Source of the DNA: Candidatus Berkelbacteria bacterium
GTDB taxonomy: Bacteria; Patescibacteriota; UBA1384; 2-12-FULL-50-11
DNA: 64,000 nucleotides
Direction: 5' to 3'
Assembly (NCBI GenBank): GCA_016432625.1
Contig: CP066697.1
Span: 586,561-650,560, forward strand
This document shows, one piece after another, positions 40,113-48,793 of the stretch (within the stretch, counting starts at the first letter, position 1; each line of letters begins with the position of its first letter). The notes beneath the pieces are model-generated. The model made no database searches and had not been told where the DNA came from. It saw only the letters and a program-made list of their open reading frames with translations. The position numbers and the translations under genes were made by a program.

Positions 40113-40141
40113 TTGCTTTTCCTCGAAGCCAGCCTTATAAT
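40113..40141 (+). promoter_or_regulatory. putative sigma70-type promoter of the trpS operon (TTGCTT-17-TATAAT)
   Basis: TTGCTT at 40113-40118, 17 nt spacer, TATAAT at 40136-40141, about 90 nt upstream of the trpS ATG. Confidence 0.4.
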
Positions 40142-40229
40142 GCGCTCAACAACGAGACATCTCGCTGTTGATGAGGTTCTTTAACAAAAAGGATATCATT
40201 GCAGTAGAAGTCTCGTGGAGAAGTAACCT

Positions 40230-41246
40230 ATGGAAAAAGACAGTCACATCATCCTTACCGGCGACCGACCCACTGGCCCTTTGCATTTGGGTCACTACGT
40301 CGGCTCGCTACGTGAGCGAGTGAAGCTTCAAACGGAGCACAAACAGCTCATCATCATCGCCGACGCGCAGGCACTCACAGATAACGCCACCAACCCAGAG
40401 AAGGTTCGCAAGAACATCCTCGAAGTGGCCCTGGATTACCTTGCCGTAGGCATCGACCCCAAGCAAACGACGATCTTCATCCAATCGCTCGTACCGGAGA
40501 TCGCCGAACTGACGATGTATTATCTCAACCTAGTGACGGTTGCACGCCTTCAACGCAACCCAACCGTCAAAGAAGAGATCAAGCAGCGAGGGTTCGGCTC
40601 AAGTATCCCGGCCGGCTTCCTGGCATACCCAGTGAGCCAAGCAGCGGACATCACCGCTTTCAAAGCGGACTTGGTGCCCGTAGGCGAAGATCAGCTGCCG
40701 ATGATCGAGCAAACTAACGAGATCGTGCGCAGCTTCAATCGTATCTACCGACACAAGGTGCTTGTCGAGGCTAAGGGACTTCTTTCGAAGGTCTCTCGTC
40801 TCCCCGGCACAGACGGGAAGGGCAAGATGTCCAAGTCATTGGGCAACGTCATTTCGCTTTCAGACAGCGCCGATGAGGTAAGTCAGAAAGTGAAAACGAT
40901 GTACACCGACCCGAAACACCTCCGTGTGGAGGATCCTGGAACGGTTGAAGGCAACCCGGTATTCGCGTACCTGGAAGCCTTTGATCCCGACGAGAAAGGT
41001 CTCGAAGCAATGAAAGACCACTACCGCAAAGGGGGGCTTGGGGATACTGTCGTAAAGCGCAGACTCCAAGAAGTCCTTTTGGCGGAACTGGATCCGATTC
41101 GCGCTCGGCGCGAAGAATTCGCCAAAGACCCTGACGCAGTGATGCGCATTCTCCAAGATGGAACCGCAGCAGCTCGCGAAATTGCTGCAAAAACCTTGGA
41201 AGATGTTCGCAGAGCAATGCGCATCGACTATTTCTCCAACGACTAA
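40230..41246 (+). CDS. trpS: tryptophanyl-tRNA synthetase (canonical)
   Basis: [13 protein letters not shown] (HIGH), KMSKSLGN, 338 aa; higher-GC codon usage than flanking genes. Confidence 0.9.
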
Positions 41247-41257
41247 AGGAGGTCGTC

Positions 41258-42340
41258 ATGTCTGAAATCGTTCGCGTCGCAACAAAAGCGATGAGGATGA
41301 TGCTCGGCGAGCAAGACGACCCTGAACTCATCCTTCTCTCCTTCCCCGGAAGTTCTGGTGCGAGAGTGTCGCTTTTTAGACACGCTCGCACCAATTCTCT
41401 CTATGCAGTGAAGTGCGTGGCGCAGTCACGGGTTTCACTAATGGACGAGATCGGAAGAAGAAACGCACTAACGCCTTACCTGCCGGATCACCTCCCGCAG
41501 GTATTATGGTGCCAAGTGTTGGACGGCTTCGAGGTCATGATCTCCGAGTGTAAGGGGATACATTCCCTCCATCACCTCATTATCAACTCCAACGTGCCTC
41601 ACAGTCGTTTACTAGGAGTCTGGAAGGACTTTATAGAGGCGCTACTGCGAATGTGGCAAGGTTCCGAGCACCAGTTCAATGAAGCTCTGTGCCCGCGCTT
41701 CTTTCCCGCCCGGCTGGGTAGGATTGAGCAGGGTATTCGTAATGCGACCGTTGGCAAGACCAAGCTCTCCGAGTGTTGGGATATGCCAGTGGTCGTCAAC
41801 GGTAGCGAATACCAGTCTATCGCAAAATCGTTCGAGGCGATTGCCCAGGTGGGCAAGCCAAAAATGGGCGTAGTGTGCCACGGCGATCCTCAGCCCAGCA
41901 ATATCGTTGTCGGGACGAGGTACTCATGGTACTGCGTAGACTGGGAGTGGGCAGGCCCTCATCAGGATTGGAGAATGATGTTGGCCAATCTCTACGGGTG
42001 GTGGTCTACCCGTTGCAGCGTCTTGTCTACCGATGCCGTCTTGCGAGTGTCTCGAAATCGTCTTGAAATCGAACACAGCTCGTACGTGCCGACCCACTTA
42101 CAACCGTACCAAGACATCGCGCGCTCCGTTGCTTCGACGATGTCAGCTGGATTTCCGAGTGAGGAGACGACAAATGACGTTAACCGGTTTCTCGCCGCGC
42201 TCTACTTTGGGGAGATTAGATTTCTTCACATGTGGGGACGCGAGGCTTTCGCTGAAACAATGCTGGCTCAGGCCATCACTACGATTAGCGGATCATATCG
42301 GGGCGCTAACGCACAGTCGTTCAGATTCCCTCAACAATAA
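41258..42340 (+). CDS. APH/ChoK-like phosphotransferase (protein-kinase-like fold)
   Basis: Brenner motif VCHGDPQPSNIVV and D-W-E metal-binding motif YCVDWEWAG; start 12 nt after the trpS stop. Confidence 0.6.
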   Translation: MSEIVRVATKAMRMMLGEQDDPELILLSFPGSSGARVSLFRHARTNSLYAVKCVAQSRVSLMDEIGRRNALTPYLPDHLPQVLWCQVLDGFEVMISECKGIHSLHHLIINSNVPHSRLLGVWKDFIEALLRMWQGSEHQFNEALCPRFFPARLGRIEQGIRNATVGKTKLSECWDMPVVVNGSEYQSIAKSFEAIAQVGKPKMGVVCHGDPQPSNIVVGTRYSWYCVDWEWAGPHQDWRMMLANLYGWWSTRCSVLSTDAVLRVSRNRLEIEHSSYVPTHLQPYQDIARSVASTMSAGFPSEETTNDVNRFLAALYFGEIRFLHMWGREAFAETMLAQAITTISGSYRGANAQSFRFPQQ

Positions 42341-47825: not shown

Positions 47826-48076
47826 CAGCGGAACAGAGCGCAGCTCTACCTCAGCTGACATGGACCCCGGAAATGATAGAGACACTTCGATCTGAAGCTT
47901 GGGAGGCCGTGAGCAATCGCGAGCACTCAGCCATGAAGATCGAGCTGCTTCTCGCCCAAATCGAGGAGGTCCTCGAGCGCAAGCTCGTCAGCGGTAATGA
48001 GGTGTTGGTTTGGCACGAACGCCGAATCGAACTCCAAGAGCTGCACCAAATCGCCACTAGCCGCTGGGAAAACTAA
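47822..48076 (+). CDS. hypothetical protein (84 aa, 4 Trp)
   Basis: ATGA overlap with the decarboxylase stop; no motif. Confidence 0.4.
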   Translation: MTAEQSAALPQLTWTPEMIETLRSEAWEAVSNREHSAMKIELLLAQIEEVLERKLVSGNEVLVWHERRIELQELHQIATSRWEN

Positions 48077-48113
48077 CCCAGTCGCCCCGACCCTCACCGC
48101 ACCGCGGTGGCCA

Positions 48114-48144
48114 GGCGGAAAGCTTCAAAACTTTCCGCCTTTTT
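48114..48144 (+). terminator. Rho-independent terminator of the tRNA-Trp/decarboxylase operon
   Basis: GGCGGAAAG-cttcaaaa-CTTTCCGCC followed by TTTTT; abuts the plsC stop codon. Confidence 0.55.
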
Positions 48145-48793
48145 AGTACTGATGCTGAAAATAGAGTTCGGCAATTTTTTCCATAATTGCCTTGGTCGCT
48201 TTCTTTGTGTTTCCGTCACTTAAATCTGGGTAATCAATGTTATTGAGGTAAAAAGGCTCACCGATTCGAATGATTATTCGCGGTCGGCCGAGGGCAAAAG
48301 GGATGAATGGCGGCAAGTCATGCGGTGCGTTTATGGATAGCGGCAGAATGGCTGAACCAGTCATCAAGGCCAACATTGCCGCGCCGCGCTTACCTTCACC
48401 AAGCTTGGCTCTTTCTGGAATGACCTTACCCTCCGGAAACATCATCACCGAGCCGTTGTGCTTGAGGATATGTAACGGCGTTCTAAGCGAACGCTCAATG
48501 CCTTTACGCCTATGGGCCATAAATGCACCGAGCATCCAAATTAAAAGATTGAGCCCGGGAATGTAAAAAATCTTGTTTTTGGCCATAAAGCGCAAGGGAA
48601 ACAACGAAGGCCGACTAAGAAGCGCTACCCCAACCAACTGTGGATCGATGTGACTTTCATGGTTGGAAACGACAATTAATGGCCGCGAGGCTTCCCGCAA
48701 ATTTTCCCGACCGATAACCTCAAGGCGCGAAAACGTCTTCAGTAGTCCCCAGCTAAGGCCTGCGGCGATATATTGGAATAAAGCGATGATCAT
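48143..48793 (-). CDS. plsC: 1-acyl-sn-glycerol-3-phosphate acyltransferase (LPLAT family)
   Basis: NHESHIDPQLVG (NHx4D) and FPEG motifs. Confidence 0.8.
   Translation of the reverse strand: MIIALFQYIAAGLSWGLLKTFSRLEVIGRENLREASRPLIVVSNHESHIDPQLVGVALLSRPSLFPLRFMAKNKIFYIPGLNLLIWMLGAFMAHRRKGIERSLRTPLHILKHNGSVMMFPEGKVIPERAKLGEGKRGAAMLALMTGSAILPLSINAPHDLPPFIPFALGRPRIIIRIGEPFYLNNIDYPDLSDGNTKKATKAIMEKIAELYFQHQY

Follow-up and report, generated by a model that had tools for sequence, protein, structure and literature searches.

The window, a 64,000-nt stretch of a Berkelbacteria contig, contains an 8-kb tract in which two genes of the tryptophanyl-tRNA synthetase (TrpRS) family and a tRNA-Trp lie among genes for several other enzyme families. 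The features are listed below in window coordinates.

40058-48254, no strand: island, a tract exchanged or recombined recently between Berkelbacteria lineages, delimited by identity to the closest relative (L007), with raised GC3
40230-41246, plus strand: TrpRS of the TrpRS II (auxiliary) type, 338 aa (TIGR00233, 252.8 bits against a cutoff of 176.75)
41258-42340, plus strand: small-molecule kinase of the APH/choline-kinase fold, 360 aa, Trp-rich (3.1% W)
42352-43197, plus strand: two-domain Pol-beta nucleotidyltransferase (NTase), 281 aa (NTP_transf_2, 21.2 bits; GS...DLD motif invariant)
43187-44221, plus strand: archaeal-type TrpRS paralog with a four-Cys (putative 4Fe-4S) motif, 344 aa (PF00579, 42.6 bits)
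44241-44275, plus strand: terminator-like hairpin GGCCGG...CCGGCC with a T7 run, closing the four-gene operon as read from the sequence; kept in L007
44303-44331, plus strand: sigma-70-like promoter TTGACA-17-TACTAT (10/12 matches)
44339-44392, plus strand: 17-codon leader ORF, MVKQLSTTTWWGGLTLI and stop, with tandem Trp codons at 44366-44371
44392-44450, plus strand: mutually exclusive antiterminator (44392-44403 pairing with 44428-44439) and intrinsic terminator (stem 44430-44443 and T-run)
44470-45225, plus strand: short GCS2/YbdK-type carboxylate-amine ligase-like protein, 251 aa (PF04107, 34.6 bits)
45252-46112, minus strand: convergent AstE/AspA-family zinc amidohydrolase (PF24827, 74.5 bits)
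46135-46163, plus strand: promoter-like site TTGACC-17-TACAAT upstream of the tRNA gene
46219-46291, plus strand: tRNA-Trp(CCA) with a G73 discriminator (bacterial identity), CCA end not encoded; identical in L007
46323-46535, plus strand: 70-aa protein with four CxxC motifs, a direct reading of the sequence
46545-47825, plus strand: group II PLP-dependent decarboxylase, 426 aa (PF00282, 100 bits)
47822-48076, plus strand: 84-aa hypothetical protein, 4.8% Trp, its start overlapping the decarboxylase stop
48113-48140, plus strand: intrinsic terminator (10-bp stem and T-run) ending the unit that runs from tRNA-Trp to the 84-aa ORF

The 8-kb tract is a horizontally exchanged island, because its identity to L007 diverges sharply from that of its flanks. 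DNA identity in 200-nt windows was 0.83-0.98 within 40058-48254, compared with 0.34 before 40058 and 0.68 dropping to 0.4 past 48255; blastn gave one HSP (40041-48682) at 91% with flanks at 67-69%, and island proteins were 82-98% identical to those of L007 vs. 49-74% for flanking proteins. These limits, defined independently by identity, nearly coincide with the 40113-48145 block proposed in a sequence-only reading of this DNA, and all the elements listed there (the genes, tRNA-Trp(CCA), the Cys-rich mini-ORF and the WW leader) were present at their places, the limits of the mini-ORF being corrected to 46323-46535. The composition shift is real yet modest. Per-kb GC was 0.51-0.58 vs. about 0.50, GC3 was 0.62 vs. 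0.56 overall, and it reached 0.61-0.68 in eight of nine island genes vs. 0.559 ± 0.040 in 43 other genes (Mann-Whitney p = 0.001), the exception being the AstE gene (0.48). The codon bias expected from that reading was found for AAG, GAC, ATC and CTC, and also for GAG, TTC and AAC, but not for GGC (0.39 vs. 0.46). An integrase and flanking repeats were looked for at the island and neither was found, the same outcome as before.

The first four genes (trpS, kinase, NTase and TrpRS paralog) form a single operon, as had been proposed, with intergenic gaps of at most 11 nt or overlaps; the paralog gene overlaps the NTase gene by 11 nt. About 30 non-redundant loci from Patescibacteria, whose flanks are unrelated, share this gene order at identities of 36-100%, and the operon is apparently undescribed. 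Among 32 non-redundant locus groups, the kinase was found in 31, the NTase in 29, and trpS and the paralog in 27 each; missing genes were mostly accounted for by truncated contigs. All four families were also linked in an organism of 68% GC, where gene order was permuted and paralog-aminotransferase fusions were present, and the high-GC relatives of the cassette resemble actinomycete biosynthetic clusters. The trio of kinase, NTase and paralog adjoined an ordinary bacterial-type TrpRS in a Woesebacteria group, lacked an adjacent trpS in one lineage, and in one case sat between rplA and rplJ within a ribosomal-protein operon. In 17 of 20 CPR loci the cassette was richer in GC than its flanks, with a difference of as much as 14 points. 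Several copies adjoined tRNA genes, an IS110 element or a recombinase, with tRNA-Trp as the neighbor in two unrelated lineages, and cassette TrpRS from genomes labelled Berkel-, Falkow- and Parcubacteria shared 78-85% identity. The cassette itself is rare, being carried by 8 of about 185,000 species genomes.

Horizontal acquisition, as first suggested from composition, is thus borne out by the divergence differential, the GC excess over flanks and the insertion into a ribosomal-protein operon. The block is indeed conserved in related genomes, as a housekeeping explanation would have it, but these comparisons indicate a sporadic mobile cassette in a scattered minority of Patescibacteria and not vertical core synteny. 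The module is also smaller than the nine genes originally grouped together, since conservation across lineages stops after the fourth gene. It is extremely improbable that the genes make up no functional unit and are accidental neighbors in a compact genome: CPR genomes are gene-dense and the downstream half of the island is conserved in one relative only, but finding the four genes in the same order in about 30 independent contexts, and permuted in a distant organism, effectively refutes accidental juxtaposition for the core.

The first gene had been taken for a canonical trpS, and proved to be of the TrpRS II type instead. Its product matched the auxiliary TrpRS II of Deinococcus radiodurans (2A4M/1YI8) at 63% identity across 325 aa (451 bits), with the next-best TrpRS in the PDB at 252 bits. 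Both the HLGH and KMSKS motifs are there, and Trp residues are absent from this and from 11 other cassette TrpRS. Auxiliary TrpRS copies have roles in inhibitor resistance or stress, and one confers indolmycin resistance in Streptomyces (PMC9437257). The role of the cassette TrpRS could not properly be called "immunity" if these genomes, of roughly 0.8-1 Mb, carry no other trpS.

The fourth gene product had A. pernix TrpRS (3A04, E 9e-35) as its best PDB match, followed by eukaryotic and archaeal TrpRS, and scored under all TrpRS equivalog cutoffs. The HIGH and KMSKS-like motifs for ATP binding and catalysis are retained, H82xG84H85, R251-M252 and G280G281 are invariant, and the GxDQ motif reads S-D-I-[HNK]-Q. 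Four Cys are invariant (C298/C320/C327/C330; C-x21-C-x6-C-x2-C). With this Fe-S motif, most of the anticodon-binding domain of a genuine TrpRS is kept, so the paralog may still bind tRNA.

By fold, the kinase and NTase lie closest to enzymes that act on small molecules rather than to those that modify proteins or RNA. The nearest solved folds of the NTase are Tam41, which links CMP to a phosphomonoester, and ANT(4'), the likeness to Tam41 being moderate (TM 0.45). Anomeric sugar kinases (MTR kinase and NahK) are among the nearest folds of the kinase, and its fold does not disclose the substrate. APH and ANT folds are classical antibiotic-inactivating families, and the island could serve resistance only, against an external TrpRS-directed antimetabolite such as one from a host or neighbor. 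The TrpRS II-type enzyme would then be an insensitive target, the kinase and NTase would inactivate the compound, and the paralog would act as a decoy or further modifying enzyme. The mobile, patchy cassette with its co-transferred TrpRS and the indolmycin resistance given by the Streptomyces auxiliary enzyme (PMC9437257) agree with this, but we consider it unlikely. The strict order and translational coupling of three enzymes at 36-100% identity point to a pathway or complex rather than independent resistance genes, the paralog retains its catalytic motifs, and biosynthesis-type neighbors recur.

Those neighbors lie directly 3' of the core in three loci (L004, L019, and L041) and comprise an aminotransferase, a GFO/IDH/MocA oxidoreductase, a HAD protein, a TylF methyltransferase and an S51 peptidase; a monooxygenase is also among the enzymes of extended clusters. 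They suggest a small-molecule pathway as the context of the cassette, and puromycin-type aminonucleoside pathways follow an oxidoreductase, aminotransferase, phosphatase, methyltransferase and amino-acid-ligase logic (PMC11641026). No exporter or other canonical biosynthetic gene was conserved alongside the cassette in the loci compared. The oxidoreductase, aminotransferase, HAD protein and TylF-type sugar O-methyltransferase are equally a standard amino-sugar toolkit, and the operon might belong to an activated-sugar or cell-envelope pathway without Trp chemistry, with trpS linked by co-regulation or hitch-hiking only. The kinase and NTase would make an NDP-sugar from a salvaged sugar, as the anomeric sugar kinase folds and Tam41-like linking of phosphate to NMP would allow; the oxidoreductase and aminotransferase would convert it to an amino sugar; and the paralog would N-aminoacylate it like MshC, a class I aaRS paralog that ligates amino acids to amino sugars (PMC2922099). 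We regard this as quite unlikely. Hitch-hiking of trpS does not account for a linkage that outlasts both permutation of gene order in the distant high-GC organism and replacement by another TrpRS type; moreover, no glycosyltransferase was conserved near the cassette in the loci compared, and the version in the window carries a tRNA-Trp and a Trp attenuator.

The Trp-codon attenuator noted upstream of the GCS2-type gene was upheld by in silico folding. The start site is predicted on the leader AUG itself, so the leader mRNA is probably leaderless, without a Shine-Dalgarno sequence. With a ribosome footprint masked at the WW codons, the RNA folded into the 2:3 antiterminator helix at -18 to -19.5 kcal/mol. 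When it was folded at full length, or with the ribosome placed on the stop codon, the 1:2 helix and the terminator formed. In this model the leader behaves as a classical attenuator in which stalling at UGG UGG swaps terminator for antiterminator. The WW pair is kept in the L007 leader (MVKHLSTIIWWGGLTLI), and the attenuator was seen in these two close relatives only and hence is without covariation support. The ligase-like protein it precedes starts at ATG 44470 behind an AAGGAG ribosome-binding site, matched Amidoligase_2 weakly and TIGR02050 at 54 bits (under cutoff), and had no match among PDB sequences.

GCS2, AstE, tRNA-Trp, the mini-protein and the decarboxylase occurred together only in this island and one close relative among the loci compared. 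The downstream enzymes (GCS2, AstE and decarboxylase) are therefore lineage-specific, the place being taken in other lineages by methyltransferase, aminotransferase, oxidoreductase, HAD and S51 peptidase genes. The AstE/AspA protein was closest in the PDB to succinylglutamate desuccinylase. The decarboxylase was closest to MfnA Tyr/Asp, His and Ser decarboxylases and scored 195 bits against TIGR03812 (MfnA), under the cutoff of 299. The tryptamine formation, amide formation and detoxification proposed in the sequence-only reading found no direct support. The G73 of the tRNA-Trp, from its sequence, differs from the A73 that an archaeal-type TrpRS would be expected to recognize (PMC5370408).

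A starvation response would explain the WW attenuator and the Trp-free TrpRS no less well than antibiotic logic does. The island could be a translation module that sustains Trp-tRNA(Trp) formation during Trp shortage in an auxotrophic symbiont; its means would be an additional tRNA-Trp, the TrpRS free of Trp, and a second synthetase, archaeal-type with an Fe-S motif, of other affinity or conditions. The kinase and NTase would either control the synthetases, through phosphorylation or AMPylation, or service the tRNA; TrpRS is a known target of HipT-type kinases. The aminotransferase would salvage Trp from indolepyruvate, the S51 and AstE hydrolases would release it from conjugates, and the attenuator would induce GCS2. 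Attenuator switching as expected for Trp-tRNA shortage, the absence of Trp from all cassette TrpRS, tRNA-Trp beside the cassette in two unrelated lineages, the motifs and anticodon-binding domain retained by the paralog, and the paralog-aminotransferase fusions are consistent with this. Mukai et al. favored such a role in Trp metabolism or encoding, not antibiotic synthesis, for CPR TrpRS-A operons, which are related to the cassette (PMC5370408). Against it stand the small-molecule folds of the kinase and NTase, the G73 discriminator, the missed equivalog cutoffs, the poor fit of methyltransferase, oxidoreductase and monooxygenase to salvage, a decarboxylase that would destroy and not save the amino acid, and a rarity and mobility unlike a core starvation response. 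We consider this module somewhat unlikely.

The four-gene operon probably makes or handles a Trp-linked small molecule. We propose tentatively that an aminoacylated, nucleotide-activated metabolite may be the joint product of the kinase, NTase and paralog, with the co-inherited TrpRS II serving as a synthetase that is either insensitive or dedicated. The substrates, product and TrpRS role that we infer are these. The kinase would phosphorylate a hydroxyl of a small sugar-like or nucleoside-like acceptor, and the NTase would turn its product into an NMP- or NDP-linked form. The paralog would activate Trp or a Trp-like amino acid as the adenylate and move it onto this acceptor, in place of or besides tRNA, giving an aminoacylated nucleotide-type metabolite that resembles Trp-AMP or the 3' end of Trp-tRNA; the TrpRS II-type enzyme would keep tRNA-Trp charged in its presence. 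Tailoring genes would vary by lineage, the Berkelbacteria set being the operon's own tRNA-Trp, the PLP decarboxylase, the AstE-type amidohydrolase and the GCS2-type amide ligase, the last turned on by Trp-tRNA shortage through the attenuator.

Like the E. coli trp operon and pheST, the attenuator has a short leader ORF, a 1:2 / 2:3 / 3:4 helix scheme and a T-run terminator, and tandem Trp codons are a feature of trp-operon-type leaders; unlike both, it precedes a GCS2-type ligase and not a Trp biosynthesis or synthetase gene. TrpRS-A1/A2/A-like proteins and an accompanying "ORF1" were described in CPR bacteria and DPANN archaea (Mukai et al., 2017; PMC5370408). As with the island paralog, they are archaeal-type, rare, laterally transferred and at times adjacent to a bacterial-type TrpRS, which lacks Trp residues in both settings; TrpRS-A2 has a four-Cys 4Fe-4S motif of the same kind, and each family is always paired with an uncharacterized ORF directly upstream. 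In contrast, TrpRS-A operons carry tRNA-Trp(A73), and the paper makes no mention of a kinase or nucleotidyltransferase (PMC5370408). The gene directly upstream of the island paralog is a confident Pol-beta NTase; compared by description, it may or may not be the counterpart of "ORF1", and the paralog family that of TrpRS-A2 or A-like. MshC, MetRS-like ligases and cyclodipeptide synthases likewise place a class I aaRS core among small-molecule enzymes (Aravind et al., 2010; PMC2922099), and MshC keeps the ATP motifs as the paralog does. MshC and the MetRS-like ligases derive from CysRS or MetRS, whereas the paralog is TrpRS-derived and retains an Fe-S motif together with the greater part of the anticodon-binding domain.

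The extended clusters share a dehydrogenase, aminotransferase, phosphatase, O-methyltransferase and amino-acid-adding enzyme with the puromycin pathway (Pur10/Pur4/Pur3/DmpM/Pur6; PMC11641026), a likeness in logic only. The cassette ligase is aaRS-like, unlike Pur6, and this island is without the oxidoreductase, aminotransferase and HAD genes. Deinococcus TrpRS II and Streptomyces TrpRS1 are auxiliary copies tied to stress, modified Trp or indolmycin resistance (PMC9437257); the first gene of the operon is far nearer to TrpRS II than to other solved TrpRS, and the nitric-oxide synthase partner of the Deinococcus enzyme was not seen at this island. Relative to aaRS self-immunity systems, the cassette is known from genes alone, lacks an exporter, and resides in roughly 1-Mb symbionts, not classical producers. 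As in indolmycin/TrpRS, mupirocin/IleRS, albomycin/SerRS and agrocin 84/LeuRS immunity, a synthetase is co-inherited with tailoring or biosynthetic-type enzymes, here on a mobile unit, and the high-GC relatives likewise look like actinomycete clusters. The resemblance to clusters of an aaRS paralog and tailoring enzymes that the sequence-only reading had drawn is supported in general, and it gains strength from these high-GC relatives and from the linked TrpRS belonging to the auxiliary TrpRS II type.

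The window was compared with L007, an ENA metagenome contig and the closest relative found. Blastn returned a single 8.6-kb HSP (window 40041-48682, 91% identity; flanks 67-69%), and DNA identity in 200-nt windows was 0.83-0.98 over 40058-48254, against 0.34 before this tract and no more than 0.68 after it. Both contigs share their flanking genes, which encode a MurA-like protein, a response regulator and a 7TM-GAF histidine kinase on the upstream side and PlsC and IleRS on the downstream side; the flanking proteins were 60, 74, 49, 73, and 63% identical, and those of the tract 98, 94, 93, 89, 95, 82, and 93%. 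The tract therefore has a history that differs from that of its surroundings and is much more recent. Its borders approximately match those of an island proposed in a sequence-only reading (40113-48145), and every gene named in that reading was present where it had been placed, with the domain type it had been assigned. The main features are as follows.

40058-48254: island, the tract of high identity to L007
40230-41246: trpS, encoding a tryptophanyl-tRNA synthetase (TrpRS)
41258-42340: kinase
42352-43197: nucleotidyltransferase (NTase)
43187-44221: TrpRS paralog, annotated by NCBI as a hypothetical protein of a Candidatus Berkelbacteria MAG, which puts the window in a CPR (Patescibacteria) genome
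44470: most likely ATG start of the GCS2-like ligase gene, after an AAGGAG ribosome-binding site
45252-46112 (-): AstE/AspA amidohydrolase
46219-46291: tRNA-Trp(CCA), found by both ARAGORN and Rfam
46323-46535: Cys-rich protein of 70 aa with four CxxC motifs; the open reading frame proposed earlier is real, and its frame is corrected here

The features from the GCS2-like ligase onward, together with a group II decarboxylase and an 84-aa protein, make up the accessory set of the window and L007.

The island had also been described as rich in G+C. The rise was clear at third codon positions (GC3 of 0.61-0.68 in eight of the nine island genes vs. 0.559 +/- 0.040 in 43 other window genes; Mann-Whitney p = 0.001) and modest per kilobase (0.51-0.58 vs. 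about 0.50). Codons ending in C or G were over-represented for Lys, Asp, Ile, Glu, Phe, and Asn. The AstE/AspA gene was the outlier within the island (GC3 of 0.48) and its least conserved gene relative to L007 (82% amino acid identity; DNA 0.81-0.87), pointing to an origin of its own or to lower constraint. Two genes elsewhere in the window, 55517-56614 (-) and 62031-63038 (+), had a GC3 of about 0.686, equal to or above that of the island genes. The lowest GC content in the window (0.45-0.48; GC3 of 0.48-0.49) was that of two genes bordering the island on its upstream side (38585-39929, -), which encode a ThiF-family E1-like protein and a FeeM/GNAT N-acyl amino acid synthase-like protein. An aminotransferase gene takes the place of this pair in L007, an indel separate from the island, and in a distant locus, L041, the four-gene cassette (trpS, kinase, NTase and paralog) likewise has a ThiF gene upstream.

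Horizontal acquisition, as first proposed, is upheld by the identity contrast with L007, by GC3 and by the composition of the cassette in other genomes. The GC content of the cassette exceeded that of its flanks in 17 of 20 CPR (Patescibacteria) loci, with the excess reaching 12-14 points in L002, L014, and L015, and tRNA genes, an IS110 transposase, a serine recombinase or conjugation genes were found beside several copies. The cassette TrpRS was 78-85% identical across genomes with different candidate-phylum names; in contrast, identity between the IleRS proteins of the window and L007 was just 63%. The absence of an integrase and of flanking repeats also held, since no recombinase was present among the island genes and a search for att-like repeats at the borders gave short chance matches only. 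This makes homologous recombination through common flanks the likelier route here, and since the flanks are shared with L007, it is sufficient to explain the exchange between these two lineages. No relative of the kinase or NTase was detected among IMG/VR viral contigs, which gave no evidence of phage carriage.

Homologs of the last three cassette genes were few (67, 49, and 54 clusters for paralog, kinase and NTase, respectively), and those with names belonged to Patescibacteria (Berkel-, Falkow-, Kaiser- and Woesebacteria and "Patescibacteria group"). Lookup of exact proteins gave seven contexts, all in the order trpS, kinase, NTase, paralog; the genes overlap or are closely spaced, and the flanks had nothing in common. 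A scan for the paralog pattern in one genome per species (185,579 species) detected only eight loci, seven titled Patescibacteria or "bacterium" and one Gammaproteobacteria. The latter (L015, CAYSOR010000052.1) is a 7-kb contig with a typical CPR cassette and is probably mis-binned. A metagenome scan seeded with the kinase added 34 loci; dereplication left 32 groups, of which 31 contained the kinase, 29 the NTase, 27 trpS and 27 the paralog, with contig ends accounting for most absences. The nine genes of the island had been viewed as a single module; that they form one conserved unit is rejected on the contexts in other loci, since only the four-gene core was conserved across lineages. The cassette proteins matched none of the PADLOC anti-phage defense models.

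The exceptions to the common arrangement were instructive. In the L016 group (Woesebacteria), the TrpRS preceding the trio of kinase, NTase and paralog shares only 33% identity with the others and is, by PDB comparison, an ordinary bacterial TrpRS. On the Woesebacteria-like contig L048 (7938-10935), the trio lacks trpS and lies on the opposite strand between rplA and rplJ, interrupting the otherwise universal nusG-rplK-rplA-rplJ-rplL (nusG-L11-L1-L10-L7/L12) cluster. The same four families are linked in permuted order in L052-L054, from an organism of 68% GC that is probably an actinomycete, judging from its XRE-TPR regulators. These loci encode a HAD protein, the NTase, a fusion of the paralog to a class I/II aminotransferase, TrpRS, an APH-like kinase and a luciferase-like monooxygenase (L052 3417-10033; L054 252-5884), and L054 also contains a TylF-type methyltransferase and an XRE-TPR regulator. 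The linkage to trpS persists even where the TrpRS is of another type or the gene order is permuted, which points to a functional tie rather than hitch-hiking.

Sequences upstream of the cassette also recurred. A HisKA_7TM-GAF histidine kinase and a response regulator precede it in three otherwise dissimilar loci (window 35817-38585; L007 2676-5473; L041 3670-6672) and may be a dedicated two-component regulator. In L019 (10907-12106), the S51 peptidase encoded downstream carries a fused HisKA_7TM-like membrane region. The cassette trpS of L009 is preceded by a conserved leader of about 150 nt (6885-7034), with equivalents in L014, L015, L021, L022, L024, and L035; it contains three hairpins and a repeated CTCTTTG/CAAAGAG element able to pair alternatively, shows little covariation and had no match in Rfam. 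The leader of trpS in the window is different.

The trpS gene product is a genuine TrpRS, with HLGH and KMSKS motifs and a TIGR00233 score of 252.8 (equivalog cutoff, 176.75). It had been called canonical, and this does not hold. The protein was 63% identical over 325 aa to TrpRS II of Deinococcus radiodurans (2A4M; 451 bits), and no other solved TrpRS scored above 252 bits; on subtype, its reading as an ordinary housekeeping enzyme is rejected. D. radiodurans TrpRS II, an auxiliary enzyme, is induced by stress and binds nitric-oxide synthase. In Streptomyces, auxiliary copies of TrpRS confer resistance to indolmycin (PMC9437257). That the island serves resistance and nothing more is considered distinctly unlikely. 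All 12 cassette TrpRS that were checked, from the window and 11 other loci, contain no Trp at all (window background, 1.13%), a trait also remarked for bacterial-type TrpRS by Mukai et al. (PMC5370408). The kinase, translated directly after this Trp-free enzyme, is Trp-rich (11 Trp residues, 3.1%), and many of these residues are invariant throughout its family.

The paralog aligned over nearly its full length with archaeal and eukaryotic TrpRS, the best match being that of Aeropyrum pernix (3A04; E = 9e-35), and scored below every TrpRS equivalog cutoff (best, NF008926, 116.7 vs. 320; TIGR00233, 71.8 vs. 176.75). It retains the class I ATP-binding motifs. The HxGH motif is invariant, and the KMSKS position reads [KQ]RMS[AV]K, where R251-M252 is invariant among CPR members; the high-GC relatives have degenerate forms (RAS or RGT). 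A GGR motif, Q-x-Y-G-W and four Cys residues are also invariant, and most of these features are kept in the fused high-GC forms. The four Cys (C298-x21-C320-x6-C327-x2-C330), invariant in 26 CPR members and the fused relatives, align with those of 3A04 and resemble the C-x22-C-x6-C-x2-C motif of Fe-S TrpRS of the Thermotoga maritima/A. pernix type, with a spacing of x21; the paralog is a putative Fe-S cluster protein. By alignment, the GxDQ segment reads S-D-I-[H/N/K]-Q, in which D212 and Q215 are invariant but displaced, and the amino acid pocket of the paralog may accordingly differ. The family is very small, with about 18 of 1.84 billion representatives at 50% identity scoring above 245 bits. 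Several of its more distant representatives are aminotransferase fusions, of class I/II in P0188, P0216, and P0192 and of class IV in P0285.

The kinase has the catalytic motifs and the fold of the APH/choline kinase group. Family profiles of the kinase and NTase gave no significant match among PDB sequences, and comparison of folds was required for both. For the NTase, the Tam41 type, which forms CDP-alcohols with phosphate as nucleophile and pairs an NTase domain with a winged-helix-like second domain, is a candidate, at moderate resemblance (TM 0.45).

The genes downstream of the paralog varied with lineage. Among the first 13 loci, a Peptidase_S51 gene was present in six and a gene for a HAD-like protein of about 210 aa in four. 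L041 contains a run of genes for a TylF-type methyltransferase, a class I/II aminotransferase, a GFO/IDH/MocA oxidoreductase, a HAD protein and an S51 peptidase; L004 lacks the HAD gene and L019 the methyltransferase gene of this run. By their predicted functions, these accessory genes are a small-molecule tailoring set. Hydroxyl-to-amine conversion is achieved by a dehydrogenase and an aminotransferase acting together; joined by a phosphatase, a methyltransferase and an enzyme that adds an amino acid, this pair would parallel the pathways to amino sugars and to aminonucleosides, for example puromycin (PMC11641026), a likeness of logic alone. An amino-sugar or envelope pathway without any connection to Trp is judged very unlikely.

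Among the accessory proteins of the window, the GCS2-like protein has no sequence relative in the PDB, the AstE/AspA amidohydrolase is nearest to succinylglutamate desuccinylase, and the group II decarboxylase is nearest to MfnA Tyr/Asp, His and Ser decarboxylases and falls under the MfnA cutoff. The discriminator of the tRNA-Trp is G73, the bacterial identity, and CCA is not encoded. Archaeal-type TrpRS use A73 (PMC5370408); the island thus does not supply the archaeal-identity tRNA for its paralog. A tRNA-Trp gene was found beside the cassette only in the window/L007 lineage and the unrelated L006 lineage, and its linkage is rejected as a general feature of the cassette.

The GCS2-like gene is preceded by its own candidate control region.

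44241-44275: terminator of the four-gene operon
44303-44331: promoter, a good match, downstream of the operon terminator
44339-44392: leader open reading frame of 17 codons, MVKQLSTTTWWGGLTLI, with UGG UGG at 44366-44371

The predicted start site of the promoter falls on the leader AUG, so the leader mRNA probably has no 5' leader of its own, which would explain the missing Shine-Dalgarno sequence before the open reading frame. The full leader is predicted to fold with 44395-44412 paired to the Trp-codon segment and with the terminator in place (stem 44430-44443 and T-run; -34.2 kcal/mol). With a ribosome footprint on UGG UGG, 44392-44403 would pair with 44428-44439 (-18 to -19.5 kcal/mol), consuming the 5' arm and loop of the terminator; with the ribosome at the stop codon, the terminator alone is predicted. 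These in silico folds conform to the classical 1:2/2:3/3:4 scheme of trp-type attenuators and, with the terminator call, agree with the earlier proposal of a Trp-codon leader attenuator. The leader was 97% identical in L007, and the Trp-Trp pair was kept in this one close relative despite three amino acid changes; the folding z-score of the whole leader was just -1.5, with no covariation. If the attenuator is real, the GCS2-like gene would be induced by a shortage of charged tRNA-Trp. The only Rfam matches, at gathering and E-value thresholds, were two tRNAs; neither the island nor the region preceding trpS in two other loci gave a T-box or other riboswitch.

The attenuator, the Trp-free TrpRS and the anticodon-binding domain retained in the paralog are the evidence for the main rival explanation, that the island is a module for translation under Trp limitation, which we regard as rather unlikely. 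Any explanation must account for a mobile cassette in which three small-molecule-type enzymes occur in strict co-order with translational coupling and a persistent linkage to TrpRS, usually of the auxiliary type. It must also account for recurrent PLP, redox, methyl, phosphatase and peptidase neighbors, for paralog-aminotransferase fusions and, in the window lineage, for tRNA-Trp and the Trp-sensing attenuator predicted in silico. We tentatively favor, at less than an even chance, a pathway in which the kinase and NTase would activate a small acceptor, the paralog would aminoacylate the activated acceptor, and the TrpRS II-type enzyme would serve as an insensitive or dedicated synthetase. This pathway is close to the self-immunity idea of the sequence-only reading, is limited to the four-gene core and makes no claim to a specific chemistry; in that form, too, we hold it as possible rather than probable. 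A narrower version, which we consider doubtful, is that the trio is a previously undescribed pathway in which a ligase derived from an aaRS would load Trp or a Trp analog onto a small acceptor that is phosphorylated and nucleotide-activated, giving a mimic of Trp-AMP or the 3' end of Trp-tRNA with which an insensitive TrpRS II co-travels. If true, it would establish a new class of aminoacyl-nucleotide metabolites and the first widespread cassette of the antibiotic-and-immunity type in CPR, with relatives in high-GC bacteria.

CPR bacteria have very small genomes and little known specialized metabolism, and an accessory island of 8 kb devoted to one amino acid is unusual. The operon joins two non-canonical TrpRS lineages with a kinase and a nucleotidyltransferase, a combination for which the searchable literature gave no description. 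A Trp-linked nucleotide metabolite made by the trio would represent new aaRS-paralog chemistry and a candidate weapon in symbiont-host or competitor interactions; an operon that tunes the supply of Trp-tRNA would be a new means for auxotrophic symbionts to manage their rarest amino acid. The Trp-free TrpRS II, the putative Fe-S TrpRS paralog and the probably leaderless leader-peptide attenuator of a CPR bacterium are testable items.

No description of the cassette emerged from literature searches, whether directed at the cassette itself or at TrpRS paralogs of CPR or of biosynthetic clusters. Mukai et al. (2017) reported rare archaeal-type "TrpRS-A1/A2/A-like" genes in CPR and DPANN, always with an unknown "ORF1" and sometimes beside a bacterial-type, Trp-free TrpRS, and TrpRS-A2 carries a four-Cys motif (PMC5370408). 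Set beside these groups by description only, the paralog family may overlap the A2 or A-like groups, and on the same basis ORF1 might be the NTase. The operons of Mukai et al. are arranged as tRNA-Trp(A73)-ORF1-TrpRS-A, with no kinase or NTase mentioned (PMC5370408); in contrast, the window has trpS-kinase-NTase-paralog, with tRNA-Trp(G73) 2 kb downstream. The TrpRS-A/ORF1 operons, so far unexplained, and the TrpRS II of Deinococcus may be placed in a functional context by the cassette. We place the cassette itself within a known type, the aaRS-paralog operon with a linked auxiliary synthetase.
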